Shown here: one piece after another, positions 9,437 through 61,573 of the stretch
Numbering within the stretch: the first letter of the stretch is position 1
Layout: each line of letters begins with the position of its first letter
Assembly: GCA_002720275.1 (NCBI GenBank)
Contig: PBHR01000001.1
Coordinates: 10,126-74,125 of the forward strand
From: Methanobacteriota archaeon
Lineage (GTDB): Archaea; Thermoplasmatota; Poseidoniia; Poseidoniales; Poseidoniaceae
Direction of reading: 5' to 3'
Length of the DNA: 64,000 nt
Position numbers and translations under genes: made by a program
The notes under the pieces: generated by a model
Seen by the model: only the letters and a program-made list of their open reading frames with translations
Databases searched by the model: none
Told to the model about the DNA's origin: nothing

Positions 9437-10231
9437 TTATATCGAGATTGGAGCTTTGATGTGTGGGTGATGTTCATAATCTAAAATTATAAAATCATCA
9501 AATTTAAATTCATCAATATTTGTTATGTTTTTATTAATTTCAATTTTTGGTAATTTCTTTGGAGTTCTACTTAATTGTATCTTAGTTTGTTCTATATGGT
9601 TTTTGTATAGGTGTGCATCTCCAAGAGTATGTACGAATTCTCCAGGCTTTAGATTGGTAATTTGAGCCATCATTAATGTCAATAGACTATATGATGCAAT
9701 ATTGAATGGGACTCCAAGAAAAACATCTGCACTTCTTTGGTAAAGTTGACAAGATAATTTCCCATCAGCGACATAAAACTGGAAAAATGCATGACAAGGC
9801 ATCAAGGCCATTTCATCTAATTCTCCAACATTCCAAGCACTAACAATAATTCTTCTTGAATTTGGATTGTTTTTAATTGCCTCAATTGCATTTTCTACTT
9901 GGTCAATTATTTCACCCTCTTTTGATTCCCATTTCCTCCATTGTTGACCATAAACGGGTCCTAGGTCGCCTTCTTCATCAGCCCATTCATTCCAAATACG
10001 CACGCCATTTTCTTGGAGATATTCAACATTCGTGTCGCCTTTTAGAAACCATAATAATTCATGAATAATCGATTTCAAATGAAGTTTTTTAGTTGTAACC
10101 ATTGGAAATCCTTTTGACAAATCAAACCTCATTTGGTGTCCAAAAACGGAAATAGTCCCCGTCCCTGTACGGTCTTCTTTAGCAATTCCTTCGTCAAGAA
10201 TACGCTGCATTAGTTCGAGATACTGCTCCAT
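9437..10231 (-). CDS. thyA: Thymidylate synthase ThyA
   Basis: [29 protein letters not shown], active-site region [15 protein letters not shown]-terminal [11 protein letters not shown]-like tail. Confidence 0.9.
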
Positions 10232-37041: not shown

Positions 37042-38037
37042 TTAACCAATTAATGGTGATTTAGTTTGACTTAATCTTCTTTCTGACTCTTTAACGTCTA
37101 ATTTCCTTACAATTGAAAATCCAATTATTGAATAAATCAACAAAAACATCCAATATTTCCCAAATAAAAATATGCAAGCAAATGTGGATATTGAACTAAA
37201 CCAAAATGCACTTACGGTGATTCTCAATGCATTCGATTCAATTCCTTTACCTAAAACATACCATTGCCAACCCCTTTTCCATAGTTTTTTAAAAATTAGT
37301 AATGAAACATTCGGCAAAAATTTCCGTATCTTTAATTTTGATTTTTCTCCTTTGTAAATGCTTTTGACAGGCACCTCTTTTAATTTGAAACTTCGCCTTC
37401 CTGATTCTAATAGCCACCAATTGGTATATCCATAATCATCCCATGTATTACTAAAATCCCAAAGTTTAATCATTTCTAAATCAATTGCTCTATAGCCGCA
37501 TTGAGTATCATTTATGAATGGGTATCCACTTGCAAGTCTCATTAATTTCTTAAGTAAATAACTTCCGAATTTTCTTATTTTAGGCATTCCTTCTAGTCCA
37601 ATTCGATTTCCTTTAACGTGGTCTGCAGTGTTATTAATAATTGGTTTTGTTAGATTAGGAATGTCATTTGGATCCATTTGGCCATCAGAATCCATAATTA
37701 GGACAACCCATTTTTCTTTATCTGGGAAGTATTTTTCTAATTTTTTATTTTTTTCAAGTATTATTAGTTCTTTTAATCCATTAAATACCGCAGATCCAAC
37801 TCCAAGGTTTTCTTGATTTAAAATTTTGAAACTTAATTTAGATTTTGAATTTCCTAGTTCTTTTCTTCCACTTTTAATTAAACATTTTTGGGCAATTTTT
37901 AATGTTGAGTCCGTAGAACCATCATTTATGAATAAAACAAAGTCTATTGCGTTAGGTATTGATGAAATTGTATCTTCTACATAACGTTCTTCGTTATGGG
38001 CAGGCATTATTAATGCTATTCCGTGTTGTTCTGACAC
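37042..38037 (-). CDS. Family 2 glycosyltransferase (polyprenyl-phosphate sugar synthase-like) with C-terminal TM helices
   Basis: IALIMPAHNEERYV...DGSTDST...DSDGQMDP (DxD) and hydrophobic C-terminus. Confidence 0.75.
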   Translation of the reverse strand: MSEQHGIALIMPAHNEERYVEDTISSIPNAIDFVLFINDGSTDSTLKIAQKCLIKSGRKELGNSKSKLSFKILNQENLGVGSAVFNGLKELIILEKNKKLEKYFPDKEKWVVLIMDSDGQMDPNDIPNLTKPIINNTADHVKGNRIGLEGMPKIRKFGSYLLKKLMRLASGYPFINDTQCGYRAIDLEMIKLWDFSNTWDDYGYTNWWLLESGRRSFKLKEVPVKSIYKGEKSKLKIRKFLPNVSLLIFKKLWKRGWQWYVLGKGIESNALRITVSAFWFSSISTFACIFLFGKYWMFLLIYSIIGFSIVRKLDVKESERRLSQTKSPLIG

Positions 38038-42979: not shown

Positions 42980-45900
42980 ATGGCGAGGGAGTCATGGACT
43001 AGGAATTTTTTAGCAATCTCCCTTATTTTTTTGGTATTTTTCAGTCCTTTTTCGGGTATTCTTTATTTTGAAGATGAACTAGAATCGGGTTTAAATGTAA
43101 CAAAAAATACATCTGTTGGTAGTAGTGAAGTAGTAAAAATAAATAATTTCCCTAGTGGTTATTCTGAGGATTTTTCAATTTCAATTCCCGAAAATAATGC
43201 ATTGGACCTTTTAGAATTTGATTTAGAGCCACTTGTAGACATTTCCTCAGATCATATTCATTGGGAATCCCAGAATCATTGGACTAATTCATGGGCGGAA
43301 CTTGAAAATGTTGATTATAACAAGTCAGGGTTAAGAATTAATTCACCACCGCCTTCTTGGGATTTTGAATTATTTAACCATGGGTGGACTTTAGATGCTG
43401 CAGGAGGTTGGGCTTGGGGTGTTGATTCTGTTGGTGCTCATGGTGGTTCAAAAGCAATATACACATATTTAGGCCAATACCCAAATCAAATGTCTACAAC
43501 CTATTATGCTACGTCTCCAAGCATAGATTGCTCTTCTTGTAGTGGTGGTTGGAGTGTCAATTTTTGGAAATTATTGGGGGTCGAGAGTAGTTCTTGGGAT
43601 CATGCATATTTTCAAGTGAAGGGTCCTAATGGATGGAATACGATTTGGGAAAATTCTGGTACAATAATTGATAGCAGTTATTCTTTACAGTCCCATAGAG
43701 TTGATTCTTATATTGCAGGAAATAGCGATTTTAAAATTCGTTTTGGATTAGGTCCAACTGATTTTAGTGTTACATATGATGGTTGGAATATTGATGATGT
43801 TTCGATTACTCCAGTACCTGGTTCAGGTAATGGTGCAGCAAAAGTTGAAGGTTCAGGGGATGCTAATTGGACATCACCCACTATTGGCTCAGGGCAATTT
43901 CATTCTACTCGTTCGGGACCCTATGGTTTACTGAATATTTTGGCCGAAACCCCAGAAAATACCGGATTAGATTGGACAATCATTGATTCACAAACAAACC
44001 TTCCAATAACTGGTTACGAAAAAAGAGTTGAATTGTTTTCCGATTTAGGTAGAATTGATTGGTTAAAGCACCCAAGTATTAGAATTAAAGTACACTTGTG
44101 GAGTCAAAATCCTTCTTCACCTATAATTCAATCAATTTCATTAGGTAATCAGTGGGATTTTGACTTTAATCAAGATCCGGGTGAGATGGGTTGGACTGGA
44201 ATTGGAAATTGGATTCCTGGTGAATATCAAGGTTCAGGAGATCTTGAATTCCCTGAAATTCATTCTACAAGGCCGATGCTGTCTGTCGATTTAGAAATAG
44301 ATGTTTCTGGAAACGGTCAATTGCAAATGTCAGAAGGATTTGGAGATTGGAAAAATATTTCACCTATTGGTGTTGTTAATTTGGATAATTATTCAAAAAT
44401 GATTAGATTAAGATGGCTTTCAGATTCTGGCACGTGGTCATTTAGCTCATTAAAAATTGAATTTATGACAGGTATTTTACCACTTCATCCCTCTTTAGAT
44501 ATTCGTAGAGATGGAGAAGAAGAATGGAATTTATCTGAGTCTGAAATAGGTTTTTGGGGTTCTCAGGATAGATGGTCTGACGGTTCTGTTTCCCAACTTG
44601 TTACTTTGTCAACAGGTTCTCCGAAATATATTGATTTTTGGATTCCTTCAAATGTAGTTGAAGGGTTTTGTATGGATTTGACTCCCGAAAACGGTGAAAT
44701 TTCTGAATTAGATGTAGAAATAAGATTAGGATCTACTGCGGTTTATCAAAATTATATTAATGAATTTAATGGAATTTTTAGATTTTGTCTATCCGATGTG
44801 CAGATTGATAATTTAAATGAAAACATTTCAACAAATACGAATGTTTGGAGTAGCAAAGGTCAAAATTTTGTTTCTGCAAAATTAAAATTAACTGGTAGCT
44901 CTCAAAGAATTTTAATTAATGCATTAGACATCTTATATCATCCAAAACTTGAGTTTAGAGAGTATTCAGATTCATCAATTATTTCCGCAATAAATGATTA
45001 TTCATCAAATTCGCCCGTTAATTCTGGAAATTATGACGTGCCTATTCCCTTATTTTCAGTGGTTGAATCTTCTTATCTTGTTACTTTAATCGGTCAACAT
45101 TCAACATCTGGTCTTTTAACAGAAGAAACAATTTTAATTAATTCTACTGAGCCATTAGTTTCATCAGAAAAATGGCTTGAAATAGAATCTAAACATTCAG
45201 TATCTTATGGAGAAATAAAATCTGTAGAATATGAATTTAATTCTGATTTTTCTAAAATTATTTTCAATTTCCCAATCAACAAAGATCCTTATTTTGTTGA
45301 GGGAGATTATGACTTGATAGAATTAAACAACCATCCTTTTGAATATATTGAGGGGGTGGAAAACATTTCAAAATTTAATTTTAGAATTAAACCTATTTGG
45401 GATGATGATTTAAATCTAGAAATTAAGGTTAGACTAGTTAGGGATGATGGTGTAAAAAGTATCCCAGAGATATTAAAAATAGGATTTAATGGGGCTAAAT
45501 CAGTCGAAAATGACGTAGAAATCAAATCCTGGTCAGTACTTAATGACTTAGGAGAAGAAATACCTTTTGGTATGCCCTATCTTAAATCTGGTTCAGATGT
45601 CGTGATTGAAGTGAATGTTGGATTTGAAGATTTTATTACAAACTCTCATTTCCCAAAATCTGGAGATTTAGAAATTATAGTTATGGAAAACGATTTCGAA
45701 ATAGCTAGGAGCAGTAATTTTACCGAGGGTAAAGTTAGTTTTATCCGTTCAATACCTTTTGGACCTGGAAATTTGACTTATGAAATTAAACTCAATCCTT
45801 TGTATTCTCAACTAGATGTTACAGATATTGTTGTAAATAGAACATTTACTGCTGATTCATTAGCGCCACAATTAATTTCAAGTACGCTAGAAAGATATGA

Positions 45901-48091
45901 TCACCGTCACCCCTCTAAAAATCAAATACTTGCCTTTGATGTTTTTGACAGGCCTGTTTTACCAAATGCCTTGAAAATTAATTTATGGAGGGAATGGGTT
46001 GATGATATTGATCAAGATGGCCAACCTTCATTAGAAGAATATTGGTCTAATACGATGTTTAGTCCCGCAAATCTTTCATCCTCTTTTGGAAGGTATACTT
46101 ATGTTTTAGATGATTCTGAAGCTCCAGTTGGAAGTTTAGTTTATGGATTCATAAGTGGTTCTGATTCAGCAGGAAATATATTAGTTGGCGGAGGAGGGGG
46201 GACTTTAGGTGATGAATTATTTGTTTATCAAGTAAAATCTGACGGCTCACCTCAGATTTTACCCGGAGAAATCACATGGAATAATTCAGGGGTGATGTGG
46301 TTAAACCCTGATGTAGAGTATGAATTGAATTTGCCATTTAATGAGCCAAATGGCATTAGTGATATAGATTATGTGATTTTTGATTTGGCAGAATTTACAG
46401 ATGCAGAGGGTATGAGGGTTGTATGGAATTCTTCAGAATCAAGATGTGAATCAAATGGTTACAACTTAGTAATCTTATCTTGTAATATTTATTCCAGAAA
46501 TTCATATTTCGGCCCATTTAATAGTGAATTGGAATTTAGAATTAAATTTAAAATAAAATGGAGTTATTTAGTGGACGAATCATATATACACGAACCTTCT
46601 ATAGAAATTATTGATAGGGCGGGTTATAGTTCAATAATGACTCTTCCACAGTTAAGGTGGAGGTTTTCAAATCAAATCTGGATTGACTCTAATGACTTAG
46701 AATTAACTACTGAAATAGGCTCAAAAATCGACAATAATGTTTATGTTTTACCAGATAATATGATTGGAATAAGAGGATCATTTTCATTTTCAAGGACTGG
46801 AAACCAAGTTTTAACACCCATTAACGTTGAAATGGCAATTGGATTTAATAAACAGACTAATTTTACCACTGAGGGTTACTTTTTCTTTGAATTAAATACA
46901 CCCACATTACCTGGTAATTATCCACTTTCAATAAATTTAGTTGATTTAAATAAAGAAATATTCGATACAAATAATATGTTGACGACTTGGATTGTTGTTG
47001 ATAATCAAGCACCAAAAATAGAGCAAATAAGTTCTCCTCGACCGGATATTTCGTTATCTAGAGAAGAAATCGAAAATTTAGTAATTGATTTTAAAATTAA
47101 AGAAACAATAAAATTAATTCCGGATTCGATAGTTGTTCATTGGTCCATTAATTCAGTAGGTGAAAACCCAGGAGCTTATTTGATTTCTGACGTAATTGAG
47201 GATTTAGATATCGAAGATCCAATTGCTGGTAGCTATTCAATCTCTGTATTATTCCAACTTAATGAGAGACTTAATGACTTACCCATAGATGAGGAATTAA
47301 TCTTCAATATCTGGATTGAAGGTTCTGATGCATCTGGTAATCTTATTTCTGATGAAGATAATAGTGAATATGCCCCATTTGAATCTTGGTTAATTTTACC
47401 TTATCAGCCAATGTTAGTAATTAGTGACATTACATATTCTAAATATGGTGGTATCTCTGTTGGCGATCCAATAAAGGTAGTTGTTACCGTTGAAAATAAT
47501 GGGAATGCAGATGCTGAGACAAATCTAACTGTTTTTATTAAGGCTGCAGATGGAGAATACATGATTTCTAGGGAACCAATAATTGTAAACGTTAATTCTA
47601 AATCATCAGTCGCTCTTGATTGGGCACCTAGTGAAACTGGGGTTCAGTGGATAGAAGTTCGTTGGAATGATGAATACCTTGGGGAAGGATCATTAGTTTC
47701 AGTTTTAGAACCGGAAAGCTCCTTATTTTCCAGTGTGGGTGGTTCTACTACTATTTTTGCTGGAATCTTTATATTAATAATCATCACGATATCTTTGTTA
47801 TTTATCTTGTATAGTGGAGAAGATGAGTATTTTGAAGAATATTATGAAGAAGAAGATGATGAAGAAATTTTAATTCCAGAAACAAAAATAGAAATCTCAA
47901 AACTTCCTCCTTTACCTCCACCTCCAAACATTAATCCTGTACTTAGTAACCCTGAGCCTATAATAAAACCACCTTCAGTAGAAAATAATATTTCAGTTAG
48001 GCAATGGACTGATGAAAAAGGGTATACTTGGAGGATTGAAGGCAATAATCCTGCTAAATGGTGGGATGGTAAAACATGGAAAGAAGTTTAA
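42980..48091 (+). CDS. Giant type-I membrane surface protein: MAM-like N-terminal domain, long beta-rich ectodomain, single TM, acidic/Pro-rich cytoplasmic tail
   Basis: Signal peptide FLAISLIFLVFFSPFSGILY. MAM-like end YDGWNIDDVSITP. TM IFAGIFILIIITISLLFILY. Tail EDEYFEEYYEEEDDEE...LPPLPPPPNINP...GYTWRIEGNNPAKWWDGKTWKEV. Confidence 0.6.
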   Translation: MARESWTRNFLAISLIFLVFFSPFSGILYFEDELESGLNVTKNTSVGSSEVVKINNFPSGYSEDFSISIPENNALDLLEFDLEPLVDISSDHIHWESQNHWTNSWAELENVDYNKSGLRINSPPPSWDFELFNHGWTLDAAGGWAWGVDSVGAHGGSKAIYTYLGQYPNQMSTTYYATSPSIDCSSCSGGWSVNFWKLLGVESSSWDHAYFQVKGPNGWNTIWENSGTIIDSSYSLQSHRVDSYIAGNSDFKIRFGLGPTDFSVTYDGWNIDDVSITPVPGSGNGAAKVEGSGDANWTSPTIGSGQFHSTRSGPYGLLNILAETPENTGLDWTIIDSQTNLPITGYEKRVELFSDLGRIDWLKHPSIRIKVHLWSQNPSSPIIQSISLGNQWDFDFNQDPGEMGWTGIGNWIPGEYQGSGDLEFPEIHSTRPMLSVDLEIDVSGNGQLQMSEGFGDWKNISPIGVVNLDNYSKMIRLRWLSDSGTWSFSSLKIEFMTGILPLHPSLDIRRDGEEEWNLSESEIGFWGSQDRWSDGSVSQLVTLSTGSPKYIDFWIPSNVVEGFCMDLTPENGEISELDVEIRLGSTAVYQNYINEFNGIFRFCLSDVQIDNLNENISTNTNVWSSKGQNFVSAKLKLTGSSQRILINALDILYHPKLEFREYSDSSIISAINDYSSNSPVNSGNYDVPIPLFSVVESSYLVTLIGQHSTSGLLTEETILINSTEPLVSSEKWLEIESKHSVSYGEIKSVEYEFNSDFSKIIFNFPINKDPYFVEGDYDLIELNNHPFEYIEGVENISKFNFRIKPIWDDDLNLEIKVRLVRDDGVKSIPEILKIGFNGAKSVENDVEIKSWSVLNDLGEEIPFGMPYLKSGSDVVIEVNVGFEDFITNSHFPKSGDLEIIVMENDFEIARSSNFTEGKVSFIRSIPFGPGNLTYEIKLNPLYSQLDVTDIVVNRTFTADSLAPQLISSTLERYDHRHPSKNQILAFDVFDRPVLPNALKINLWREWVDDIDQDGQPSLEEYWSNTMFSPANLSSSFGRYTYVLDDSEAPVGSLVYGFISGSDSAGNILVGGGGGTLGDELFVYQVKSDGSPQILPGEITWNNSGVMWLNPDVEYELNLPFNEPNGISDIDYVIFDLAEFTDAEGMRVVWNSSESRCESNGYNLVILSCNIYSRNSYFGPFNSELEFRIKFKIKWSYLVDESYIHEPSIEIIDRAGYSSIMTLPQLRWRFSNQIWIDSNDLELTTEIGSKIDNNVYVLPDNMIGIRGSFSFSRTGNQVLTPINVEMAIGFNKQTNFTTEGYFFFELNTPTLPGNYPLSINLVDLNKEIFDTNNMLTTWIVVDNQAPKIEQISSPRPDISLSREEIENLVIDFKIKETIKLIPDSIVVHWSINSVGENPGAYLISDVIEDLDIEDPIAGSYSISVLFQLNERLNDLPIDEELIFNIWIEGSDASGNLISDEDNSEYAPFESWLILPYQPMLVISDITYSKYGGISVGDPIKVVVTVENNGNADAETNLTVFIKAADGEYMISREPIIVNVNSKSSVALDWAPSETGVQWIEVRWNDEYLGEGSLVSVLEPESSLFSSVGGSTTIFAGIFILIIITISLLFILYSGEDEYFEEYYEEEDDEEILIPETKIEISKLPPLPPPPNINPVLSNPEPIIKPPSVENNISVRQWTDEKGYTWRIEGNNPAKWWDGKTWKEV

Positions 48092-48093
48092 TG

Positions 48094-48394
48094 TTGAGGG
48101 AGTGAAGAGTAAGCCCCTTTTTGTTCACCTTTCGGTTGACCGCATTCAACTATGCGTCCTACCCTTCCCTAAGCGTGCAACCTCTACGGGATTTTTTGGA
48201 CTTGCTCCAATGAGGATATTCGTTTCAGCAATTATTGAGCAATCTCCTCTTTTCAGATTCATCGTTAACACCCATAATCGTTCGTTTCTACTATATTGCC
48301 AGCCATTCCTGACTCCATTTCTGGTCATCTCGCACTATGGAGAGGGGACTTTCCTCAGGGTCTAACCCTGTCAGCGGTCCTTCCACTCCCTCAA
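48094..48394 (-). ncRNA. rnpB: RNase P RNA (archaeal)
   Basis: Minus-strand read shows P1 pairing UUGAGGGAGUG/CACUCCCUCAA at the two ends. P3 hairpin CAGGGUUAGACCCUG. CR-I GAGGAAAGUCCCC. CR-V-like ACAAAAAGGGGCUUAC co-varying with CR-I (CCCC/GGGG). Local GC is higher than the surroundings and no plausible CDS is present. Confidence 0.65.
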
Positions 48395-48454
48395 ATTTCG
48401 TCACAAGTATTACTTTTTGAACTTCACGGTAATGCTTTTTTTAATTCTAATCCT

Positions 48455-51349
48455 TTATTCATTCAATAAAACTGCATCTTTAACAAGATCTTCTGATGTA
48501 TCAATTACAGCATCACCTTCAAATTTAATCCAAGTACCTTTTCCAGAAATTCTAGATTTTGTTTCATACCATGCAGTTATTATTGCAGGCAATAGGAATA
48601 CAGAAGTTATGAATGCGAAACCGATTAGTAGAAACATTAGCATGAAGAAATTTTCTAATCCTGGGAATGCTACAAGGAATCCTGCTGAGATTCCTGCCAT
48701 TGTAGTGGCACTTGTTTCGAAAATAGTCTGACCCGTAGATTCTATAGAACGAGCCAAACCACTCGGTGTTTCACCTTCTTCTCTTATTCTTTCAATCATA
48801 TGAATACAATCATCGACACCAATTCCAAAAACAATACTTCCTACCATTGCCGTAAATACATTTACATTCACATCTCCTCCTCTCATCAGCAATGGCTGCC
48901 ATAAAATAACAATCGCAACTGGAATCATTGTTGTAACTCCAATTCTAAAATTTCTAAAAACAATTACAAGAAAAGCAGTTAATACAAATAGTGTAACTAT
49001 TGTTGTTAATGCTTGTGTGTCATGAATTCCTTTGTTAATGTCCAAAGAAACAGGCAAACCTCCTGTTAATTTACTTGTTCCTGTATTAAGTAATATTGAT
49101 TCTTCAGCTAAAATCACATCAATTTCATCTCTGAGTCCGCCTGCTTTAATCAGGTTCATGTATGGTTGTTCAACATATACTAGGGTTTTTGTTTCATTTT
49201 CATTCATTAGCATTGATCTGACTTCTTCACTTAATGTGTCTAAGGAAACATCTACAAGATCACCTCTTAATTCTGCCCTTGATCCTGAATCTAATTGTTC
49301 CATTGCAAATAATGATACGCATAATGGCAACTCTGTAAGGCCTACATTACTGTCTCCATCCCATTCCCAACATTCACTATGTAATATTCCCCATAGGCTA
49401 TCTGTATATACATTATTTCCGTCCAGTCCTATTGTGACATAAATGCTTTTTAGAAACGTGATTAGGCTTGTTGTCGTAGTATTATCTACATTAGAGACTC
49501 TATTTTCAACTAAATTGATAGTATCAAGTACAGGAAGGTCCCTGATTTGAGTTGTTCCATTAAATGAACTTCGTTCTTCTGCAGAAAATATGAACATACT
49601 TGTTTGTCCAGATTGGAATTCAACAGAATAGTTTGCTAATGTCTCAAGAGATCTTATTCCCTCAGGTGCTTCGGAAGAACCAGCAATAGGCTTGCTCAAT
49701 TCTTCTTGCATATACATTAATCCCCATCCAGAAAATAATGCTGTGATGATTAATATTACAGCAAAATACCTTACTGGCATTTTACCGATATTTCTCCAAG
49801 ATGATGGATTTGCTCTTTTATTAAATCTTAGTAACCAAGCTAAAACTGGAACTAAAATACATGAAAAGAGAAGTGTACATAGAATTCCGAGAACAAGAGT
49901 AATCCCTACAGTTCTCATTGGAACAATCGGAACTAACCCACTAATTGTTAAGACTCCAAAACCAATCATTGTAGTAATTGCAGATAAAAGAACCGCTTTA
50001 CCTGTAGTCCCCATTGTTTCCATTACTGCTTCTCTAAACAAATCTGAATCCCAACTATCAGGTAAAATTTCTTCTGGGTTTCCTAACTGTCTAGATTTGT
50101 AATTTCTTTCTTGAATTTCATCTAAAATCCTTCTTTTTGATTCTTCTATTCGATTCACAAGATGTAATGCATAATCAACACCTAAACCCACAAGGATTGG
50201 TCCTGCAGAAATAATCATTGGAGTTAACATGACATCAAACACTACTGTAGAACCTATTGTGACGGCTAAGGCCATTACTATTGGAATTCCTGAAATAAGC
50301 ACAATTTTCCAACTTCTATGTAATAAAGTAACAATTCCGACAACAAAAACCAAACTCCATGGCATTATTTTTGTTAAATCATCATAAACTGCGTCTGAAA
50401 TGTCTTCTAATACTTTAGTTAAACCAGTAAGTGTCATTGTAGTTTGAGAAAATCCTACAGAACTTCTATTGTCTAGTATATTTTGTACATGAACATGTAT
50501 TTCTGAAAAATCTTTGTGATCTGCAGTCGAAAGATCATGTCTTAACCCAATTAAAATAAATGTTGTATCCCAAATTCCATCATCATTAGAGTCATATACC
50601 ATCCCAGATAATGACCCCTCTAACCTAGAAACAATTTCATCAATTCTATCTTGATCAGGAATGCTATAACTTCCCCATGGGCCTTGATCCGTTTCAGTAC
50701 AAGGAATTGAAAGAGGGACTCTTTCTTCTAATCCATGTTCACAAAGTGATTTTACAAATCGCCCATCACTACTATTTGCTTCTTTAATTATTTGTGAAAT
50801 TGATAGAACCCAAACAATGCCATCTTCTTTGCCTCGATCATCTTTTTTGTAATCGAGACCTCTCCTTGTAGAACTTTCTCCAATGTTTTCATCATCACCT
50901 TCGACCCAACTAATTTCTTTCAATATACTTTCGTCAGTTACATTGAGACCTTCATTTTCATATTTTGCATTACTTGTTTGAATATATATTAGAGAGATGT
51001 CTGTAGACCATTGTTCTCTAACTTCTAGTAGAAGATCGGTTGATTCAGCACCTTCAGGTAGATAGATTTCAACATCTCCAACAATTTGTTCTTCGAAATC
51101 TTTTGCAGAATATGCAAACCACCCCGTAATTAGTATCATGAATGCAAGCGTTACTACTGGAGCTGCAAGAACAGTTTTGTAAGTTTTATCTAGATTTTCA
51201 GTTACTTTCTCTCCAACTTTTTCAATTACTTGATCTATATTTTTATTTGCGACATTTATTTTTCCAGTGCCATAGTTCATGGCTTTTTTATATATGCTAT
51301 TTGAACTATCTTTACTTGTCACATTCACCCCGAGTCGAGTCAATACCAT
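48455..51349 (-). CDS. RND-superfamily exporter (MMPL/SSD-type, 12 TM with two large extracytoplasmic loops)
   Basis: 964 aa with two clusters of 5-6 TM helices, each followed or preceded by a large soluble loop. Typical MMPL/HpnN-like topology. Confidence 0.6.
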   Translation of the reverse strand: MVLTRLGVNVTSKDSSNSIYKKAMNYGTGKINVANKNIDQVIEKVGEKVTENLDKTYKTVLAAPVVTLAFMILITGWFAYSAKDFEEQIVGDVEIYLPEGAESTDLLLEVREQWSTDISLIYIQTSNAKYENEGLNVTDESILKEISWVEGDDENIGESSTRRGLDYKKDDRGKEDGIVWVLSISQIIKEANSSDGRFVKSLCEHGLEERVPLSIPCTETDQGPWGSYSIPDQDRIDEIVSRLEGSLSGMVYDSNDDGIWDTTFILIGLRHDLSTADHKDFSEIHVHVQNILDNRSSVGFSQTTMTLTGLTKVLEDISDAVYDDLTKIMPWSLVFVVGIVTLLHRSWKIVLISGIPIVMALAVTIGSTVVFDVMLTPMIISAGPILVGLGVDYALHLVNRIEESKRRILDEIQERNYKSRQLGNPEEILPDSWDSDLFREAVMETMGTTGKAVLLSAITTMIGFGVLTISGLVPIVPMRTVGITLVLGILCTLLFSCILVPVLAWLLRFNKRANPSSWRNIGKMPVRYFAVILIITALFSGWGLMYMQEELSKPIAGSSEAPEGIRSLETLANYSVEFQSGQTSMFIFSAEERSSFNGTTQIRDLPVLDTINLVENRVSNVDNTTTTSLITFLKSIYVTIGLDGNNVYTDSLWGILHSECWEWDGDSNVGLTELPLCVSLFAMEQLDSGSRAELRGDLVDVSLDTLSEEVRSMLMNENETKTLVYVEQPYMNLIKAGGLRDEIDVILAEESILLNTGTSKLTGGLPVSLDINKGIHDTQALTTIVTLFVLTAFLVIVFRNFRIGVTTMIPVAIVILWQPLLMRGGDVNVNVFTAMVGSIVFGIGVDDCIHMIERIREEGETPSGLARSIESTGQTIFETSATTMAGISAGFLVAFPGLENFFMLMFLLIGFAFITSVFLLPAIITAWYETKSRISGKGTWIKFEGDAVIDTSEDLVKDAVLLNE

Positions 51350-51374
51350 GAATTAAACCCATGAAAATTGATAA

Positions 51375-52388
51375 TTATTGTTGAATTGAATCTTTGAGTA
51401 CTTTACGTGCATATTGTAATACTATTCCAGAGACTAATAGCGGGATTCCAAGAGCCCCAATCCAAACAAAGGTTACTCCTGGGCCTACAGTGACTCCAGT
51501 CCATTCAGAAACATGATTTATGGTCCTTAAACCAAACAAAGCCCCAATTGTTACCATTATTAATCCAGGTAATCCAAATACTAAGAATGGTTTTTTCTGG
51601 GACAGTGTCGATAATGCGTAACTAAATACAGAAATTCCATGGGGGATTGGGTGTAAACTGGATGTGTTCTTTAAATCATATCTAATTGTTGTAGGGACTT
51701 CAAGAATTCTTAACCCTTTTTCTGAAATAGATTCTAGAATTTCTAATGATGATTTCATCCCTTCGTTTTCAAATCTAACTGCATTTATTGCTGCTTTGTT
51801 AAATGCTCTGTAGCCAGATTGTGTGTCTCTTATATGCTGTTTTGAGTGTAATTTACTTACTGTATTTATTAAATTTAAACCAAATTTTCGGTATGTGGGC
51901 ATGTCCTTACTTTTTCCCCCACTAACAAATCTTGAGCCAATTACTAGGTCTGCTTTATTTTCTGATAATGGTTTAATCATTTTTGGTAAATCTCCAGGAT
52001 CATGTTGCCCATCACTATCAATTAGAACAACAATTGATGCATTTTTTTCTTTTGCATAACTAAAAAAAGTCTTGGCAACTCCACCAACTCCACGATTTTT
52101 TTCGTGTGAGATTACTGTTGCACCAGCATCTTTTGAAATTTCTGCGGATTTATCGGATGAACAATCATCTATGCAGACTACTTCATCTGCATATTCTAAG
52201 CATGAAAGAATAATTGATGCAATAGTTTCCTCTGAATTATAGAGAGGTATTCCAATAATGACATAATCGTCAATTGGTTTTTTTCCCTCATCACCTTGCA
52301 TTATTGCTTGCAATGCTAATTTGTATTTGGTCTTGCCTAATGTATTTATGAAAAACATTTGTTTGTAGTTGTCAGTAAATATATTCAA
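51375..52388 (-). CDS. Family 2 glycosyltransferase with C-terminal TM helices
   Basis: YVIIGIPLYNSEETI...IDDCSSDKS...DSDGQHDP. C-terminal hydrophobic region. True start may be the internal Met at 52331. Confidence 0.75.
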   Translation of the reverse strand: MNIFTDNYKQMFFINTLGKTKYKLALQAIMQGDEGKKPIDDYVIIGIPLYNSEETIASIILSCLEYADEVVCIDDCSSDKSAEISKDAGATVISHEKNRGVGGVAKTFFSYAKEKNASIVVLIDSDGQHDPGDLPKMIKPLSENKADLVIGSRFVSGGKSKDMPTYRKFGLNLINTVSKLHSKQHIRDTQSGYRAFNKAAINAVRFENEGMKSSLEILESISEKGLRILEVPTTIRYDLKNTSSLHPIPHGISVFSYALSTLSQKKPFLVFGLPGLIMVTIGALFGLRTINHVSEWTGVTVGPGVTFVWIGALGIPLLVSGIVLQYARKVLKDSIQQ

Positions 52389-52415
52389 AACAGAATGAGT
52401 ACTCCGAAATGCATA

Positions 52416-53369
52416 ATGAGCCGTATACTTGTAACTGGAGGTGCTGGATTTATTGGGTCACATTTAGTTGATGAATTGATTAAAGGTGGAAATGAAGTTG
52501 TTGTTTATGATAATTTTTCTAGCGGAAGGAAAGAATTCTTAGAGAATTCCCTTTCAACAGGTAATGTTGAATTAGTAACTGGAGATTTATTAAATTTGGA
52601 AATGTTAACTAAGGCAATGGAAGGAATAGATTTAGTGTATCATTTAGCAGCTAATCCTGATATTCGTTTGGGCACTTCTGTTACAGATACAGACCTTAAA
52701 CAAGGAACAATTGCAACATATAATGTTTTAGAATCAATGAGAAAAAATGGATGTAAGAATATCGCTTTTTCTTCCTCGTCAGTTGTTTATGGCGAGGCTA
52801 AATTAATGCCAACTCCTGAAGATTACGGCCCTCTATTTCCAATAAGTTTGTATGGCGCATCAAAATTAGGTTCAGAGGGTTTAATTAGTGCATGGGTTGG
52901 AACTTTTGGAATTAAGGCCTGGATCTTTAGATTTGCAAATATAATAGGAACTAGAGGGACTCATGGTGTTATTTTTGATTTTATCCATAAGTTGAAAAAA
53001 GACTCAAGTAGGTTAGAAGTTTTAGGAAATGGGTTACAAGAAAAGTCATATATGGAAGTAATTGACTGTTCTAGAGCAATGATTCACGTGGTGAACAATT
53101 TTGATGAACAGCTAAATTATGTAAATCTTGGCTCCTCTAATACTTGTTCAGTCAGTAGAATTGCTCAACTTGTAATTGAAGAATCTGGATTTTCAGAAGT
53201 AAGTATTGAATTTACAGGTGGAGATAGAGGATGGGCAGGAGATGTTCCAAAAGCAATGTTGGACGTTAAAAAATTAAATGATAGTGGTTTTAAATGTGAA
53301 TTTCAGAGCGATGAGGCTGTAAGGTTCACTGCTAAATCATTAATTAAAGAAATCGGGTTAGGTGTTTAA
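52416..53369 (+). CDS. NAD-dependent epimerase/dehydratase (UDP-sugar 4-epimerase-like)
   Basis: MSRILVTGGAGFIGSHLVDEL Rossmann motif, YxxxK region YGASKLGSE. Confidence 0.8.
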   Translation: MSRILVTGGAGFIGSHLVDELIKGGNEVVVYDNFSSGRKEFLENSLSTGNVELVTGDLLNLEMLTKAMEGIDLVYHLAANPDIRLGTSVTDTDLKQGTIATYNVLESMRKNGCKNIAFSSSSVVYGEAKLMPTPEDYGPLFPISLYGASKLGSEGLISAWVGTFGIKAWIFRFANIIGTRGTHGVIFDFIHKLKKDSSRLEVLGNGLQEKSYMEVIDCSRAMIHVVNNFDEQLNYVNLGSSNTCSVSRIAQLVIEESGFSEVSIEFTGGDRGWAGDVPKAMLDVKKLNDSGFKCEFQSDEAVRFTAKSLIKEIGLGV

Positions 53370-54096
53370 ATTGAGGACCAGTCGTATAGAAAGAAATGAG
53401 TCTGGTGCAGAATGGATGCCTGCAGCAATATTCATGGTAGGTCTTTTGATTGTATCATTTATTTTTGTTTATGCCAATACTAATGGGGTAAAAACAGGGA
53501 TTGAAAAAGGAGATATGGCGCCTGATTTTACGGCCTTAGCTCACCTTCCTGGAAATGACACTTCGGATTGGTTTTCTTATCGCTTGTATGAAAATTTAGA
53601 TTTTAATTGGTCAGGAAATCATTCAGAAGGCGTATTTACAATAATAGAATTTTTAGATACAGATTGCCCTTATTGTTGGGACACTGCTCATAAATTAAGT
53701 TCTTTAGATAGTCAGTTGACTGATTATGGTGTAAGGAATAGAGTACAGTTTGTAATAATCGCCGTTCAATTGCCAATCCCTGGTCATGTTTCATCTATAG
53801 AAGAAATAGTAGCATTCCAAGAAAAACTTCCACACCCCGGGTGTAAAAGTGATGGTGCAGATTGCTCAACTCGACCCGGAGAGGTTCACCCAGGTGTATA
53901 TATTGATGATACTAGCAATGAAATTTTTGAGATATTTGGCCCTAGAGGAACCCCTCATTATATGATTTTAAAACCAAATGGAATTGTTGGTTGGAATGGA
54001 ATGACAGATTCATTAGATGAGATCGGTATTGAATTAGCAAATCTAATTTGTAAAGATGGCGGAGAAAACCAATTGTGTAATGAGATAAATGGGTGA
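53362..54096 (+). CDS. Membrane-anchored thioredoxin-fold thiol:disulfide oxidoreductase (TlpA/ResA-like)
   Basis: N-terminal TM, GDMAPDFTA (redoxin-type), CPYC active site. Confidence 0.5.
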   Translation: MFKLRTSRIERNESGAEWMPAAIFMVGLLIVSFIFVYANTNGVKTGIEKGDMAPDFTALAHLPGNDTSDWFSYRLYENLDFNWSGNHSEGVFTIIEFLDTDCPYCWDTAHKLSSLDSQLTDYGVRNRVQFVIIAVQLPIPGHVSSIEEIVAFQEKLPHPGCKSDGADCSTRPGEVHPGVYIDDTSNEIFEIFGPRGTPHYMILKPNGIVGWNGMTDSLDEIGIELANLICKDGGENQLCNEING

Positions 54097-54686
54097 ATGA
54101 AATGGACTGGCCTCTCTATCTTTATCTTCTTTTTATCTTTTCGGGATTCTTTCTTACAACTCCATTTGGTAAAAAATTCTCTTCAAAATTTAATAATGAC
54201 CAATCAAGGATTATTTCGGGATCATTAATTTTAGCTTTTGGAGGATATTTAGTTAGTACTCATACCTATTATATTCACGAAAAGTTACATGAAGTAGGTG
54301 GAAATTCTGGTTGCTCAGCATTTAGTGTATTTAATTGCGGGGATGTAATTTCTAATGGGTCTTACAACACTGACCCGTTTTTTGGAATTCCATGGGGAGT
54401 TCTAGGAATGTTATCCTTTGCAACAATGTTGTTTATTCTTTTAGTTTTGAGAAATTCACCAGAAGATCCAAAAATTGTTAATTGGATAAATGCCCTATTT
54501 GTAATTCCTGCTTTGGGTATGTTGCCAATCTTATGGCTTATTTATGTTGAAATTTTTAAATTAGGTGTATTTTGTCAATACTGTACTGCTGCTCATATCG
54601 CTAATTTATTTCTTTTAATCTCTTCATATATGATTTATGATCTTCACCACTCAGGTTCTTGGGAAAAAAATAAAAATAGTGATTAA
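54093..54686 (+). CDS. Vitamin K epoxide reductase (VKOR) family membrane protein
   Basis: 4-5 TM helices. Loop cysteine pair C-SAFSVFN-C (7-residue spacing as in VKOR) and intramembrane CQYC (CxxC). Confidence 0.55.
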   Translation: MNEMDWPLYLYLLFIFSGFFLTTPFGKKFSSKFNNDQSRIISGSLILAFGGYLVSTHTYYIHEKLHEVGGNSGCSAFSVFNCGDVISNGSYNTDPFFGIPWGVLGMLSFATMLFILLVLRNSPEDPKIVNWINALFVIPALGMLPILWLIYVEIFKLGVFCQYCTAAHIANLFLLISSYMIYDLHHSGSWEKNKNSD

Positions 54687-54690
54687 TAGT

Positions 54691-54963
54691 TCATGGTGTA
54701 TATTCTTCATGGGTGTTGAATAAATCTATTTCAGCATTATTTTGGACAATTTCTAGCATTAATATTGTGACTTCAATTCTAGCTTCAGAAGGGTATCTTT
54801 CCCTTAGGTGCGAAAAAAGTTTAATTTGAACTTCTTTAATGTCAATTGCTTCAATTACATCAAGATGATGTTCTGATCCATTGCTGGATTCTACTGTATA
54901 TTCTATTAACCATTCATTTAGTATTGGCCATGTTAAACTCTTTTGCTCCAGACGCTCCTTCAT
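54691..54963 (-). CDS. Hypothetical protein
   Basis: 90-aa ORF. Confidence 0.3.
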   Translation of the reverse strand: MKERLEQKSLTWPILNEWLIEYTVESSNGSEHHLDVIEAIDIKEVQIKLFSHLRERYPSEARIEVTILMLEIVQNNAEIDLFNTHEEYTP

Positions 54964-55034
54964 GTTATGTTTACTAGCATACTAGCACATAATACATTCG
55001 CATTAAAACATCATTTTTTATTGATTTTTCAAGC

Positions 55035-55979
55035 TTATTCATTTTCTTCATTTTTTGGATCAGAATTTATTTTTCCTAATGCAGCAAAGACACCTAAAGA
55101 AAAAATCATTATGAATATTGAAATGTAAAGAATATTCTCTTCTTTGGAAAGATCACCTTGGACAATTTTTACAGCACCTAAAACAGAGGTAATATTTTCA
55201 TTTTGTATTTCGTGAGTCGCTAAAAAGCCAAAATTTTCAAAATTCACATTTCCTTTAATGTTATGTGTTGCTAAAATTATTGTTTTATTTTCCGATTGAT
55301 TTGTAATAAAATCCCATTCATTATTTCCTGAAATTATTGTTTTATTCATTAAATCTATACTAATCATCTCTATTAAAACATTATCAAATTTATTCAATTC
55401 GCCAATATGATTGTTTGAAACAACCTCATTTTCAGTAATCATGATATTTGCAGAGCCTGTTAATTCCGAATCAAGGTGCATCTCAAAGTGTATTGAATTA
55501 TTTATTCTTTTAGCAGAAAAATAAATTTCTGTAAAATTTGATTTTTTACTTTGTGTTTGCATTATTTTTGAATTAAGCATGTTTATTTCATTTGCACCTT
55601 CCATTGCCATTTTTCCATCTAATAGGAATGTTGGGGCTTGTATTGAAGGAGAATTATTGAAAAGTTGATTTATTCTTTTTGAACTAGCATAATTTCCAAG
55701 ATCATCAACTCCATCAGCAGGGTGAAGTGCGATTAAGGCAACTCTTTCATTATGCATTAATGCTAAATCTTTAATCTCTGGGTCTATTTCAGCACACACT
55801 TGGCACCATGTTGCTGTGTATTCATCTAAAATTATAGTTGAACCCCCAGTGGTTTCAATTCCTTTAACTAGTTCTTTTGAGAAGGATTCAGAATTAATTA
55901 TGGTACCATTTAATGTAAATATTATTAAAATAAATATTGAAATTAATGCCTTGTTGTTATTTCCCATCATCCGCTTCAA
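55035..55979 (-). CDS. Secreted thioredoxin-fold protein with C-terminal TM anchor
   Basis: Signal peptide, WCQVC active site, cis-Pro region APTFLLDG, C-terminal TM ILYISIFIMIFSLGVFAAL. Confidence 0.5.
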   Translation of the reverse strand: MKRMMGNNNKALISIFILIIFTLNGTIINSESFSKELVKGIETTGGSTIILDEYTATWCQVCAEIDPEIKDLALMHNERVALIALHPADGVDDLGNYASSKRINQLFNNSPSIQAPTFLLDGKMAMEGANEINMLNSKIMQTQSKKSNFTEIYFSAKRINNSIHFEMHLDSELTGSANIMITENEVVSNNHIGELNKFDNVLIEMISIDLMNKTIISGNNEWDFITNQSENKTIILATHNIKGNVNFENFGFLATHEIQNENITSVLGAVKIVQGDLSKEENILYISIFIMIFSLGVFAALGKINSDPKNEENE

Positions 55980-59041: not shown

Positions 59042-61573
59042 ATGGTAGAAGACAAGCATCGTTTTTCATCAGAATTTTCAAAATTTTCATTACCTGTGTT
59101 GGTAATTTCCTTCCTTGTTACATTTGTTTTGGCTTTTCAGCTTTATCCTTTACCTTCGTTTAATACAGAAATAGCAGAATTTGCACCTTCTGATTCAGCA
59201 AGTGAAGCAGCCGATGAGTTTGGAATTGAAATGGGCAACCAAACTAGACAAATTTTAGTAAATGTTGAGATGAAAGATGGAGGTAATGTATTGTCTATAG
59301 AATCTTTGCTTATGCAGCACAATGATTATAATAAATTGTTGTCAAGCACTCCAAATAATGGTACAGAGATTGAGGGCATTATTGCATTATCTGAGATAAT
59401 TAACCTCGCTCTTTATGAAAATGATGATGGAAGCAATCTTTCTTCAGTAACTGATTGGAATAATCTGCTTGAAAGGACAGTTCCAGAAGATCTTGGAATC
59501 TCAGAAATATCTTCAAACGAACAAATATTAGCATATGGGAATTTTGTAAAATCAGCAATAATTAGTAATGATTTAGTTAGCGATGGTCTCGAATCTTGGA
59601 TTGATGATAGAAATACTACAATGGATCCTACACCTTCAGCGACATCTACTTTGTGGATTATTGATATTAATTCTGATTTAAGTCCAGAGCAATCAAAGTC
59701 CACTCAAGTTGAATTAAGGAATATTTTGAATGAAATTTCCGCAAATTCTGATTTAACTTATTCTTCAATATCGATGGATATTATTAGTTATGATGTTGAT
59801 GAAAGTACAATGAAAAGTTTTGCATTATTGATTTTGCTTGCTTTAACAGTGGTTGTAGTAGTTCTATCACTTGCTTTTAAAACTATTACAGGTGTATTAT
59901 TTCCATTGACTGGTTTAATGATGGCATTAACTTGGACTTATGGATTACTTAGTGCCTTCGAGGTGCAATTTACCGCTTTAGATGTAGCAGTAGCACCATT
60001 GGTTTTGGGTTTAGGTATTGATTATTCCATACATTTACAGAAAAGATATGAAATTAATCGTAATAAAGGCCAATCTACAGTAGATGCTTGGCTTAATTCC
60101 GTTCAAAATTTAGCATTGCCTCTTTCATTGGCAGTAATAACTACGGTTGCTGCATTTATGGCAAATTTACTTTCTCCACTACCTCCATTGAAATCTTTTG
60201 GTATCTCTTTATCTTTAGGTGTAGTTAGTGCATTTTTTTGTTCTACTGTGATTGTTGGTTGTATGCATGTTGTTGGAGAGAGAGTTTCAGGAGGAAAATT
60301 GTCTTTGGCATCTACTGGATCACTTGGTGATAAATTAGCGGGTGTAATGACTTTTCAAAAAGAGCAAAAAGCGATTATTATGATTATAACTGGCCTTTTA
60401 ACGGTAAGCTCGGTTTTTGGTGCAATGGTAATTAAAACAGAATTTGATTTGACAGATTTCCTTGATGAGGAAATGCCAGTTATGGAATTAAGAAGTGACT
60501 TACAAGATTCTTATGATTATTCAAGTATCCAGATGGTTTATGTTCTAATAGAACCACTAGGTTCTAAGTATTCAATTGAGAGTGGTGAAAATTTACTTGA
60601 TTCTATGCAATATTTAGATGATACTTTGCCTTTAACTAAAGGAGTTGTTAAATCATCAGATAGTTCAGATAGAACACAATATAATGGGATTTATACCATT
60701 ATTAGGGATGCATTAGAATTGAATCCGAATTGGGGAGAAAATTATAATTTAAAATTATTTGGCGATGAGGTTGGAAAAATAGATCCTAATGAAGAAATAA
60801 ATTTAGGAATTGCTTTGAAAAATCTGTCTCAAAACAATACTGTTGGAGATCCACTTACAGGTTCAACATGGCAAGAAAGAGTTAATGATGCAGCCTTGAT
60901 AGATAGTGATGGTGAAATTACAAAATTAAGAATAAGTATTTATGTAAATTCTGGAACAAATATTGAAAATACTGAAATTGTCAAGGATTTAAGGGATAGA
61001 ATCGATGATGTTTCAAATCAATTAGCTCGTGATGGTGCTGTTGTTCATTTAACGGGTGATATGGTAAAGATAGATACAGTTTTGACAGGTATGACAAATT
61101 CCCAAGTACAATCTACTTCAATTAGTTTGATGGTGTCATTCTTTGTTTTAATGTTGCTAACTCGTAGATTTACACCTGCATTGGTTGTAATTGCTCCTGT
61201 GGGGGTGGCTGCGTTTTGGGTTGTTGGTTCAATGGCTGCTTTAGGATTGCAATGGAATGTTTTGACAATAATGGTTTCAGCACTAACAATTGGTATTGGA
61301 ATTGATTATGCAATACATGTGTGGCGTAGGTTTGAGGAAGAAATTAAAGATTCAGATGACAATTGGGAAGCCGTGAGTAAGATGCATTCATCTACAGGTT
61401 TAGCATTGTTGATGTCTGCAGGAACAACAATTTGTGGATTTGCAGTATTGACACTTTCACCTACGCCCGTAGTAAGGGAGTTTGGTTTAATTACTTCCTT
61501 AACAGTATTTTTCTCTGTGATATTATCTTTGGTTGTATTACCTGTATTGTTGGTTGAATCGAATGAAAATTAG
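59042..61573 (+). CDS. RND-superfamily exporter (MMPL/SSD-type), paralog of 48455..51349
   Basis: 843 aa. TM cluster / large loop / TM cluster / large loop architecture. GxGxDYxIH-like motifs LGLGIDYSIH and IGIGIDYAIH. Confidence 0.6.
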   Translation: MVEDKHRFSSEFSKFSLPVLVISFLVTFVLAFQLYPLPSFNTEIAEFAPSDSASEAADEFGIEMGNQTRQILVNVEMKDGGNVLSIESLLMQHNDYNKLLSSTPNNGTEIEGIIALSEIINLALYENDDGSNLSSVTDWNNLLERTVPEDLGISEISSNEQILAYGNFVKSAIISNDLVSDGLESWIDDRNTTMDPTPSATSTLWIIDINSDLSPEQSKSTQVELRNILNEISANSDLTYSSISMDIISYDVDESTMKSFALLILLALTVVVVVLSLAFKTITGVLFPLTGLMMALTWTYGLLSAFEVQFTALDVAVAPLVLGLGIDYSIHLQKRYEINRNKGQSTVDAWLNSVQNLALPLSLAVITTVAAFMANLLSPLPPLKSFGISLSLGVVSAFFCSTVIVGCMHVVGERVSGGKLSLASTGSLGDKLAGVMTFQKEQKAIIMIITGLLTVSSVFGAMVIKTEFDLTDFLDEEMPVMELRSDLQDSYDYSSIQMVYVLIEPLGSKYSIESGENLLDSMQYLDDTLPLTKGVVKSSDSSDRTQYNGIYTIIRDALELNPNWGENYNLKLFGDEVGKIDPNEEINLGIALKNLSQNNTVGDPLTGSTWQERVNDAALIDSDGEITKLRISIYVNSGTNIENTEIVKDLRDRIDDVSNQLARDGAVVHLTGDMVKIDTVLTGMTNSQVQSTSISLMVSFFVLMLLTRRFTPALVVIAPVGVAAFWVVGSMAALGLQWNVLTIMVSALTIGIGIDYAIHVWRRFEEEIKDSDDNWEAVSKMHSSTGLALLMSAGTTICGFAVLTLSPTPVVREFGLITSLTVFFSVILSLVVLPVLLVESNEN

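Follow-up and report, generated by a model that had tools for sequence, protein, structure and literature searches.

Does an archaeon of the order Poseidoniales (Marine Group II) possess a membrane-bound pathway for the formation of disulfide bonds outside the cell, and is this pathway reserved for the giant surface proteins that are encoded in its vicinity? Both questions are raised by a locus at positions 48455-55979 of a 64,000-nt stretch of DNA from a member of the Poseidoniaceae (the window; positions 10,126 to 74,125 of contig PBHR01000001.1, assembly GCA_002720275.1), which has a G+C content of ~33% and whose locus proteins have relatives with the names Candidatus Poseidoniales, Poseidoniaceae or Poseidonia. 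An initial annotation had listed here an RND exporter, a family 2 glycosyltransferase (GT2), a sugar epimerase, a TlpA-like redoxin, a homolog of vitamin K epoxide reductase (VKOR) as well as a second secreted thioredoxin, and had proposed that they make up a dedicated surface-protein maturation locus. The genes and motifs that it named were all found in place. With a probability of roughly 0.7, the VKOR homolog and the adjoining 241-aa thioredoxin-fold protein are read here as a quinone-linked, extracytoplasmic disulfide-forming pair.

The VKOR homolog is encoded on the plus strand at 54102-54686 and comprises 194 aa from its likely ATG start, or 197 aa in the longest open reading frame (ORF), which begins with a GTG at 54093 and whose numbering is used for the cysteines below. 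The protein matches the Pfam profile PF07884 with 72.1 bits (gathering threshold 27.5; E = 6.2e-20) over profile positions 4-133 of 134, which bears out its earlier family assignment, and some of its relatives are already labelled “vitamin K epoxide reductase family protein” by NCBI. The NCBIfam equivalog models for “VKOR family protein” matched it only under their cut-offs. The loop cysteine pair with seven-residue spacing and the membrane CxxC motif that had been pointed out correspond to C74-x7-C82 and C161-Q-Y-C164, the latter situated where the last helix begins, and all four cysteines are invariant in 17 aligned relatives. Conservation was followed through 51 GTDB species loci of the Poseidoniales, as far as the contigs reach, and through 69 metagenome loci with both flanks; the C-x7-C spacing and a CQYC[T/S] motif are kept in 51/51 species loci. 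These proteins form a well-separated clade, with 14 of 1057 VKOR representatives scoring E <= 1e-30. Among solved structures, that of the Synechococcus VKOR (3KP9/4NV2) comes nearest in sequence, with weak similarity (22 bits, E ~1e-3). Distant VKORs align to the profile of the clade only from about position 35 on, and the first helix is therefore regarded as an extension of the four-helix core that is peculiar to this clade.

Directly upstream, at 53371-54096 (plus strand), lies the gene of the thioredoxin-fold protein, which has 241 aa from a TTG start and 244 aa in the longest ORF from a GTG at 53362, the numbering followed by its motifs. A positively charged N-terminus and a single hydrophobic helix (residues 18-36) precede a domain of ~200 aa, and the protein is predicted to be membrane-anchored or to bear a signal peptide. 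The GDMAPDF and CPYC motifs that the initial annotation had attributed to a membrane-anchored redoxin occupy residues 50-56 and 102-105, the latter within EFLDTDCPYCW, and a cis-Pro motif (G-T-P) is found at 196-198. Additional cysteine pairs are formed by residues 161/168 and 230/239, of which 230/239 is conserved in the clade of the window; three closely spaced, conserved pairs are typical of an oxidising compartment. Order-wide invariants comprise E-F-x-D-T-D-C-x-x-C, G-H-x-S-S-x-x-E-I-x-x-F-x-x-K, C161, C168, R171, H176, Y-x-D-D and G-T-P. The dipeptide between the active-site cysteines is PY, PH, PF, GF or TF, so that its second position is always aromatic or His.

The family to which this protein belongs is less obvious from profile searches. 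The Redoxin and AhpC-TSA profiles of Pfam did not match the protein of the window, and a weak AhpC-TSA match is on record for one distant relative. A Foldseek search with the AlphaFold2 (AF2) model, which has a mean predicted local distance difference test (pLDDT) score of 65, returned as top matches DsbE (3GL3), ResA, TlpA-like anchored thioredoxins, DsbE/DsbF of Mycobacterium tuberculosis, Etrx and peroxiredoxins, at E ~2e-6 and template-modelling (TM) scores, TM(target), of 0.6-0.69; a helical insertion domain of the DsbA type is absent from this model. The best sequence match in the PDB is the DsbA-like 3GYK (E = 0.026), which is reached through “EFfDynCPYC,” and the DsbA-like domains that are fused to bacterial VKORs carry a similar signature, “EFaDleCPaC ... 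GTP.” A profile comparison with these fused domains gave a local, weakly significant match. Thus, the designation “TlpA-like” holds at the level of the fold, as judged from a model of moderate confidence, but the active-site signature, EF-DTDCP[YHF]C...GTP, is DsbA-like by sequence. The protein is probably best described as a divergent thioredoxin-fold protein that would work like DsbA and that stands outside the DsbA and Redoxin families. A reading as peroxiredoxin was rejected, as only the fold is shared and the active site is T-D-C-P-Y-C instead of P-x3-T-x2-C.

The two genes are tightly coupled. A Shine-Dalgarno-like GGTG motif on the plus strand (53361-53364) precedes TTG 53371 by 6 nt and contains the GTG of the longest ORF, and a second such motif (54092-54095, plus strand) stands at the same distance before ATG 54102, overlapping the stop codon TGA (54094-54096) of the thioredoxin-fold gene. 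Homologs of the VKOR begin with MDWPLY and those of the thioredoxin-fold protein with MRR. The GTGs at 53362 and 54093 are therefore better read as parts of the ribosome-binding sites of operon-internal genes than as starts. The 4-nt overlap reported for the pair exists for the longest ORF only, and homolog-based starts give a gap of 5 nt instead; the tight coupling itself stands. With the likely starts, 1 nt separates the upstream epimerase gene from the thioredoxin-fold gene, an operon-like arrangement. Called genes in four divergent clades show spacings of -8 to +10 nt between epimerase and thioredoxin-fold gene and of -4 to +2 nt between the latter and the VKOR gene. In the other loci, spacings of the longest ORFs are mostly between -20 and +10 nt, and those in front of the VKOR gene mostly between -11 and +2 nt, with larger overlaps arising from upstream-extended ORFs. 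Two outliers with positive gaps of 257 and 70 nt (L048 and L055) have a VKOR match or ORF that is truncated at its N-terminus.

As the initial annotation had asked for conservation in relatives, the gene order was compared across the order. The arrangement GT2 (minus strand), epimerase, thioredoxin-fold gene and VKOR gene (all plus), a 90-aa gene and a 314-aa gene (both minus), FtsJ (plus), zinc finger, aEF-1beta, TruD, RpoL and a second RND gene was found in 51/51 species loci, at VKOR identities down to 30%, and is also kept in 69/69 metagenome loci. The thioredoxin-fold gene adjoins the VKOR gene in 48/48 genome loci and 75/75 metagenome loci that reach that far, the epimerase gene adjoins the thioredoxin-fold gene wherever this flank is present, and the co-directional trio, of which the epimerase is the first gene, is uninterrupted in 48/48 genome and 69/69 metagenome loci. 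Variation is seen between GT2 and epimerase, where a gene for 82-98 aa is inserted in some loci. An extra co-directional gene, absent from the window, directly follows the VKOR gene in Poseidoniaceae (L007, 8602-9198, plus; L004, 8637-9185, plus). It codes for an N-terminally anchored, exported protein of 182-198 aa with two cysteines and a conserved HTHDDxG motif, which could be a client or an accessory of the redox pair.

Beyond the VKOR gene, two genes are located on the minus strand. The protein encoded at 55035-55979 (314 aa) has an N-terminal signal or anchor, a thioredoxin-like region, a beta-sandwich and a C-terminal transmembrane anchor. Its WCQVC motif (residues 58-62) and a T-P116 cis-Pro are present, residues W58, C59, C62 and P116 are invariant, and Y-T-A-T-W-C-x-x-C is shared by all relatives. 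The Thioredoxin profile (PF00085) matches 19/19 relatives at E <= 1 (best 1.6e-6), many relatives are already annotated with PF00085, and weak, sub-threshold DUF1223 (PF06764) matches occur in 13/19 (best E = 4.4e-4). The top Foldseek match is 2AXO (E = 1.5e-5, TM(target) 0.53), with low confidence in the thioredoxin part of the model; 2AXO is a DUF1223 structure, and no function is assigned to DUF1223 (PMC3091736). The “second secreted thioredoxin” of the initial annotation is thus indeed an exported CxxC protein, but a two-domain, DUF1223-like and C-terminally anchored one. With DUF1223 2AXO (Agrobacterium Atu2684), it appears to share an N-terminal thioredoxin-like CxxC domain that is followed by a beta-rich domain; in contrast to DUF1223, the archaeal protein adds the C-terminal anchor, and its matches remain below the family thresholds. 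In other species, the motif is mostly WCPTC (18) or WCPSC (14). WCPTC is the motif of CcmG/DsbE, which hints at a reductant or isomerase rather than an oxidase. The 314-aa protein is read as a second extracytoplasmic thiol-disulfide oxidoreductase, which could act as reductant, isomerase or second VKOR client. A Tara Oceans metagenome-assembled genome labelled “Euryarchaeota archaeon” encodes a protein with 100% identity to it. The 90-aa gene (54691-54963, minus strand) is located downstream of it on the same strand and codes for an acidic protein without cysteines or transmembrane segments, for which no match was found in Pfam, NCBIfam or the PDB. It is present in 50/51 genome loci, always downstream of the DUF1223-like gene, and its product carries the conserved motif KEW-EY...HHL...Q..L.ELR..Y...I[ED]VT...TP.

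For these proteins to act on exported substrates, their active sites would have to face outward. Hydropathy of the VKOR family shows five peaks with centers near residues 14, 47, 110, 143 and 173, and five transmembrane helices with an N-terminus outside the cell are predicted. In this orientation, the cytoplasmic side carries 5-16 Lys and Arg residues and the outer side 1-4 in 17/17 relatives. By the positive-inside rule, the loop pair and the CxxC motif of the VKOR are predicted to be extracytoplasmic in all of them, as are both thioredoxin-like domains, in line with the outward placement of the active-site cysteines on which the initial annotation depended. The C-terminus of the 241-aa protein and the N-terminus of the VKOR are both predicted outside and, therefore, the two genes are topologically equal to a split thioredoxin-VKOR fusion. 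A fused ORF was found in none of 131 loci. VKOR representatives with N-terminal extensions were considered as candidates for such fusions and rejected, as the extensions are low-complexity tails devoid of thioredoxin domains.

Three findings had been named as speaking against the pathway: a negative VKOR profile, CxxC motifs in the cytoplasm and a gene order that is not kept in relatives. Instead, the profile is positive, the motifs are predicted outside and the order is conserved and, therefore, a VKOR-based extracytoplasmic disulfide pair is the best reading of the locus. To call the pathway complete, as the initial annotation did, overstates what 64 kb of sequence can show. In this pathway, the thioredoxin-fold protein, held by its N-terminal helix with CPYC outside, would oxidise the cysteine pairs of proteins that leave the Sec translocon. 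Its reduced CPYC motif would then be re-oxidised by C74/C82 in the loop of the VKOR, and these would hand the electrons to the membrane-embedded C161-x-x-C164, from where they would reach a quinone in the membrane and then the respiratory chain. We infer that the VKOR has its direct partner in the 241-aa protein, that electrons flow as in an oxidase rather than a reductase and that a quinone is the acceptor. The best-supported version of the pathway is the standard VKOR relay, in which electrons would move from substrate thiols via a thioredoxin-fold oxidase, the VKOR loop cysteines and the membrane CxxC to quinone, as in M. tuberculosis, cyanobacteria, plants and Aeropyrum pernix.

Several observations weigh against this reading. 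The thioredoxin-fold protein has no Pfam match at gathering score, with DSBA reaching 17.2 (vs 25.6, CxxC region only) and Thioredoxin_2 17.7, and its AF2 model, with the mean pLDDT of 65 given above, is of moderate quality. For the 314-aa protein, the Thioredoxin profile remains below its gathering threshold (21.6 vs 23.5 bits), and in its model (pLDDT 61) the beta-sandwich is confident and the thioredoxin part is poor. A domain homologous to the thioredoxin-fold protein also forms the C-terminal part of a 457-aa protein with no VKOR nearby (L103, 759-2132, plus; probably also L116); this protein has a lipobox-like LLLSGC and SDR, dCMP deaminase and FolC as neighbors, and represents a paralogous use of the domain. 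Furthermore, a Ser/Thr is conserved in VKORs six residues past the second loop cysteine (human S57; Goodstadt and Ponting, summarised in PMC4555120). At this position, the Poseidoniales proteins have Asn in 49/51 loci (N88, window 54354-54356) and Asp in 2/51, so that the conserved Ser/Thr is lacking in all 51, and S87, one residue before, is unconserved among relatives. The register was taken from the HMMER alignment to 4NV2/3KP9; an hhalign comparison of the VKOR alignment with human VKORC1 aligned only TM3-TM4 with a probability of 1.6% and was not used for this purpose. As the VKOR profile matches and the four cysteines are present, the Asn is taken as a clade-specific substitution rather than as grounds for exclusion. 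In some Crenarchaeota, the VKOR is oriented towards the cytoplasm (PMC13486548), and the topology given here is predicted. Synteny is not decisive as proof of function, since the housekeeping genes FtsJ, aEF-1beta, TruD and RpoL are equally syntenic across 51 genomes; it therefore reflects order-wide collinearity and is not evidence of a functional island. Finally, a genome scan with the VKOR alignment and a metagenome scan with the thioredoxin-fold alignment yielded nothing beyond this one order and marine relatives, which is due to the clade specificity of the search patterns.

Among the alternatives, the one that survives best assigns the opposite direction to the 241-aa protein, which would be a reductant of the ResA/CcmG/TlpA type, for example in cytochrome or copper-protein maturation, while the VKOR would have another partner, such as the DUF1223-like protein or a DsbA-like protein encoded elsewhere, and the two genes would be neighbors through inherited gene order only. 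This scenario draws on the fold search, which is led by DsbE, ResA and TlpA-like reductants, on the N-terminal G-x-x-AP-x-F hairpin motif, which is typical of the TlpA/ResA family, and on the AhpC-TSA match in one relative; order-wide collinearity weakens adjacency as proof of partnership, and the paralogous domain of L103 occurs without an adjoining VKOR. A TlpA-type fold can belong to an oxidase, as is illustrated by DsbE and DsbF of M. tuberculosis, whose structures 1LU4 and 3IOS are among the fold matches. The active site points the other way: the second residue of the CxxC dipeptide is always aromatic or His, as it is in DsbA (CPHC), and the dipeptides of the 241-aa family differ from those of the ResA/CcmG type, which are CEPC and CPTC. 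In addition, the spacing to the VKOR gene is operon-like in every lineage, and Pfam annotation of the window and of the four-clade loci revealed no CcdA/DsbD-like gene in the cluster. A role as reductant is therefore considered unlikely.

The oxidative pair shares its probable operon with a gene of sugar metabolism. The GalE-like NAD-dependent sugar epimerase/dehydratase (52416-53369, plus strand; longest ORF from 52359) matches PF01370 with 144.6 bits and has GalE as its top NCBIfam match, under cut-off; its homologs have 315-320 aa, and ATG 52416 is the likely start. Divergent from it, with ~114 nt between the likely starts, is the GT2 gene (51375-52301, minus strand; longest ORF to 52388; likely start ATG at 52301), which codes for a polyprenyl/dolichyl-phosphate sugar synthase-like enzyme of the AglJ/PpgS type with two C-terminal transmembrane helices (PF00535, 99.8 bits; homologs of 308-314 aa). 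AglJ and PpgS are its top NCBIfam matches, at ~129 bits each and under their cut-offs. Judged from these family matches, the two enzymes most likely make a dolichyl-phosphate sugar for surface glycosylation, and this pair would share transcription with the redox pair. A second AglJ-like GT2 with two C-terminal transmembrane helices is encoded at 37042-38037 (minus strand). It is conceivable, if doubtful, that the epimerase-thioredoxin-VKOR trio and the divergent AglJ/PpgS-like gene constitute a co-regulated, “ER-like” unit of N-glycosylation and disulfide formation for the surface proteins of Marine Group II, the planktonic archaea of greatest abundance; in this unit, a VKOR variant with an extra N-terminal helix and Asn would work with a TlpA-fold oxidase as a split thioredoxin-VKOR fusion.

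A still broader proposal is that of the initial annotation, in which exporter, glycosylation genes and disulfide module jointly serve two giant surface proteins as a dedicated maturation locus. The first of these, of 1703 aa (42980-48091, plus strand), has no Pfam domain and contains 6 cysteines (0.35%) in three close pairs. Its sequence has a transmembrane segment near residue 1581, followed by an acidic stretch and a proline-rich tail of ~100 aa with a W-rich end. The second, of 1379 aa (15043-19182, plus strand), shows matches to LDL-receptor class A modules and has 26 paired cysteines; it ends in VPGFTGFIGIIALIGATIFGNRKNE, which by eye resembles a PGF-CTERM-like archaeosortase signal and matched no NCBIfam model. 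The proposal gains from this protein with its 26 cysteines in pairs, from the resemblance of GT2 and epimerase to surface-glycosylation genes and from a distant Poseidoniaceae lineage (L007/L008, VKOR identity 33%), in which the cluster likewise lies beside the RND gene and the gene of a 1703-aa protein homolog. Of the “giant Cys-bearing surface proteins,” however, the adjacent one of 1703 aa is Cys-poor, and the layout as a whole argues against dedication. The LDLa-like gene is 34 kb away, beyond ~25 unrelated genes including those for tRNA synthetases, FttA and Nog1, and the gene of archaeal RNase P RNA (48098-48390, minus strand; RF00373, 214 bits) separates the 1703-aa gene from the RND gene. 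The RND exporter is adjacent in 23/31 genomes with full flanks and absent from the neighborhood in 8/31 (including L004-L006/L019), where it is replaced by DUF2116 and an amino-acid kinase, and the synteny is unspecific, extending as it does to FtsJ, aEF-1beta, TruD, RpoL and the second RND gene. The claim of a dedicated locus was therefore not upheld and is regarded as very unlikely. Exported proteins of the window have even, closely spaced cysteine counts (26, 6, 4 and 6; a small sample) and therefore fit an organism that makes extracytoplasmic disulfides. The VKOR pair would serve exported proteins generally, and the giant proteins are not singled out as clients.

That the VKOR faces the cytoplasm and forms intracellular disulfides, like an inward-facing crenarchaeal VKOR, is highly improbable: archaeal VKORs are known in either orientation (PMC13486548), and the extra N-terminal helix of the clade, absent from the VKOR core, is of a kind that can invert topology, but the positive-inside rule is obeyed in all 17 relatives only with the cysteine loop outside, the cytoplasmic side is marked by a K/R-rich loop between helices 0 and 1 and, in some relatives, by long C-terminal tails that are likewise K/R-rich, and each of the two linked thioredoxin-like proteins carries a signal for export or anchoring, with the CxxC domain on the outer side.

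An outward-facing VKOR that works with a thioredoxin-fold oxidase has counterparts in several organisms. VKOR substitutes for bacterial DsbB and re-oxidises DsbA with menaquinone, and archaeal VKORs complement Escherichia coli (PMC11208910; PMC13486548), as does that of A. pernix (PMC13486548). In the actinobacterial VKOR-MdbA system and in M. tuberculosis (Rv2968c, adjoined by a DsbA-like partner), as in the window, a stand-alone VKOR gene is found beside a separate gene for an exported thioredoxin-fold oxidase (a probable one in the window), and the VKOR has four cysteines and five transmembrane helices; there, the enzyme has the role of DsbB and passes electrons to menaquinone (PMC13486548; PMC11208910). 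Actinobacterial VKORs, however, have their fifth helix at the C-terminus (PMC4555120), and the protein of the window has its extra one at the N-terminus. Moreover, the partner in the archaeon models as a TlpA/ResA-type fold and not as a classical DsbA, Asn replaces the conserved Ser/Thr, and the host is archaeal. In the Synechococcus VKOR-thioredoxin fusion (3KP9/4NV2) and plant LTO1, a thioredoxin-like module is likewise held by the membrane near the VKOR loop cysteines, and C82 and the CxxC motif align with the Synechococcus structure; there, however, the module is fused C-terminally after the fifth helix, whereas a separate upstream gene codes for an anchored protein here. The VKORs of A. 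pernix and other Crenarchaeota are archaeal homologs implicated in disulfide formation, but their hosts are hyperthermophiles of a different phylum, and some of them face the cytoplasm (PMC13486548). Human VKORC1 is reported to prefer membrane-anchored thioredoxin-like partners (TMX family; Schulman et al., 2010, cited in PMC13486548), a parallel to the anchored partner here, but its task is the reduction of vitamin K epoxide in the service of gamma-carboxylation, and an epoxide cycle is not expected in this archaeon. The marine protein has the same C-x7-C spacing of its loop cysteines as human VKORC1.

The RND/MMPL exporter (964 aa; 48455-51349, minus strand; PF03176, 79.9 bits) is HAE3-like, with HAE3 as top NCBIfam match at 151 bits and under cut-off; it is a mere neighbor, and no evidence ties it to the redox module. 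A second HAE3/MMPL-type RND transporter, syntenic order-wide, is encoded at 59042-61573 (plus strand). To the right of the 314-aa gene, FtsJ/RlmE, an HVO_2753-type zinc finger, aEF-1beta and TruD follow. Two listed plus-strand ORFs (48012-48365 and 48417-48731) are considered spurious because RNase P RNA occupies 48098-48390. Near the left end of the window (1175-2638, plus strand), a protein of 487 aa is encoded that comprises a signal sequence, a CARDB-like domain, a transmembrane helix near residue 341 and, grouped within residues 401-480, four CxxC pairs; it resembles a surface protein whose cytoplasmic tail is a zinc ribbon. A scan for bacterial promoters and terminators, which is not applicable to archaea, gave the same counts as shuffled sequence.

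A search of the available literature library found no paper that connects VKOR with Marine Group II, and the advance made here is one at the level of annotation, with no new mechanism. The archaea of this group, very abundant and so far uncultured, depend on large exported proteins for the degradation of polymers. A VKOR-based oxidative-folding pair that is present order-wide would explain how surface proteins with paired cysteines can be stabilised in these organisms, and mesophilic, planktonic Thermoplasmatota would thereby join the Crenarchaeota and bacteria in which disulfides are formed by way of a VKOR.

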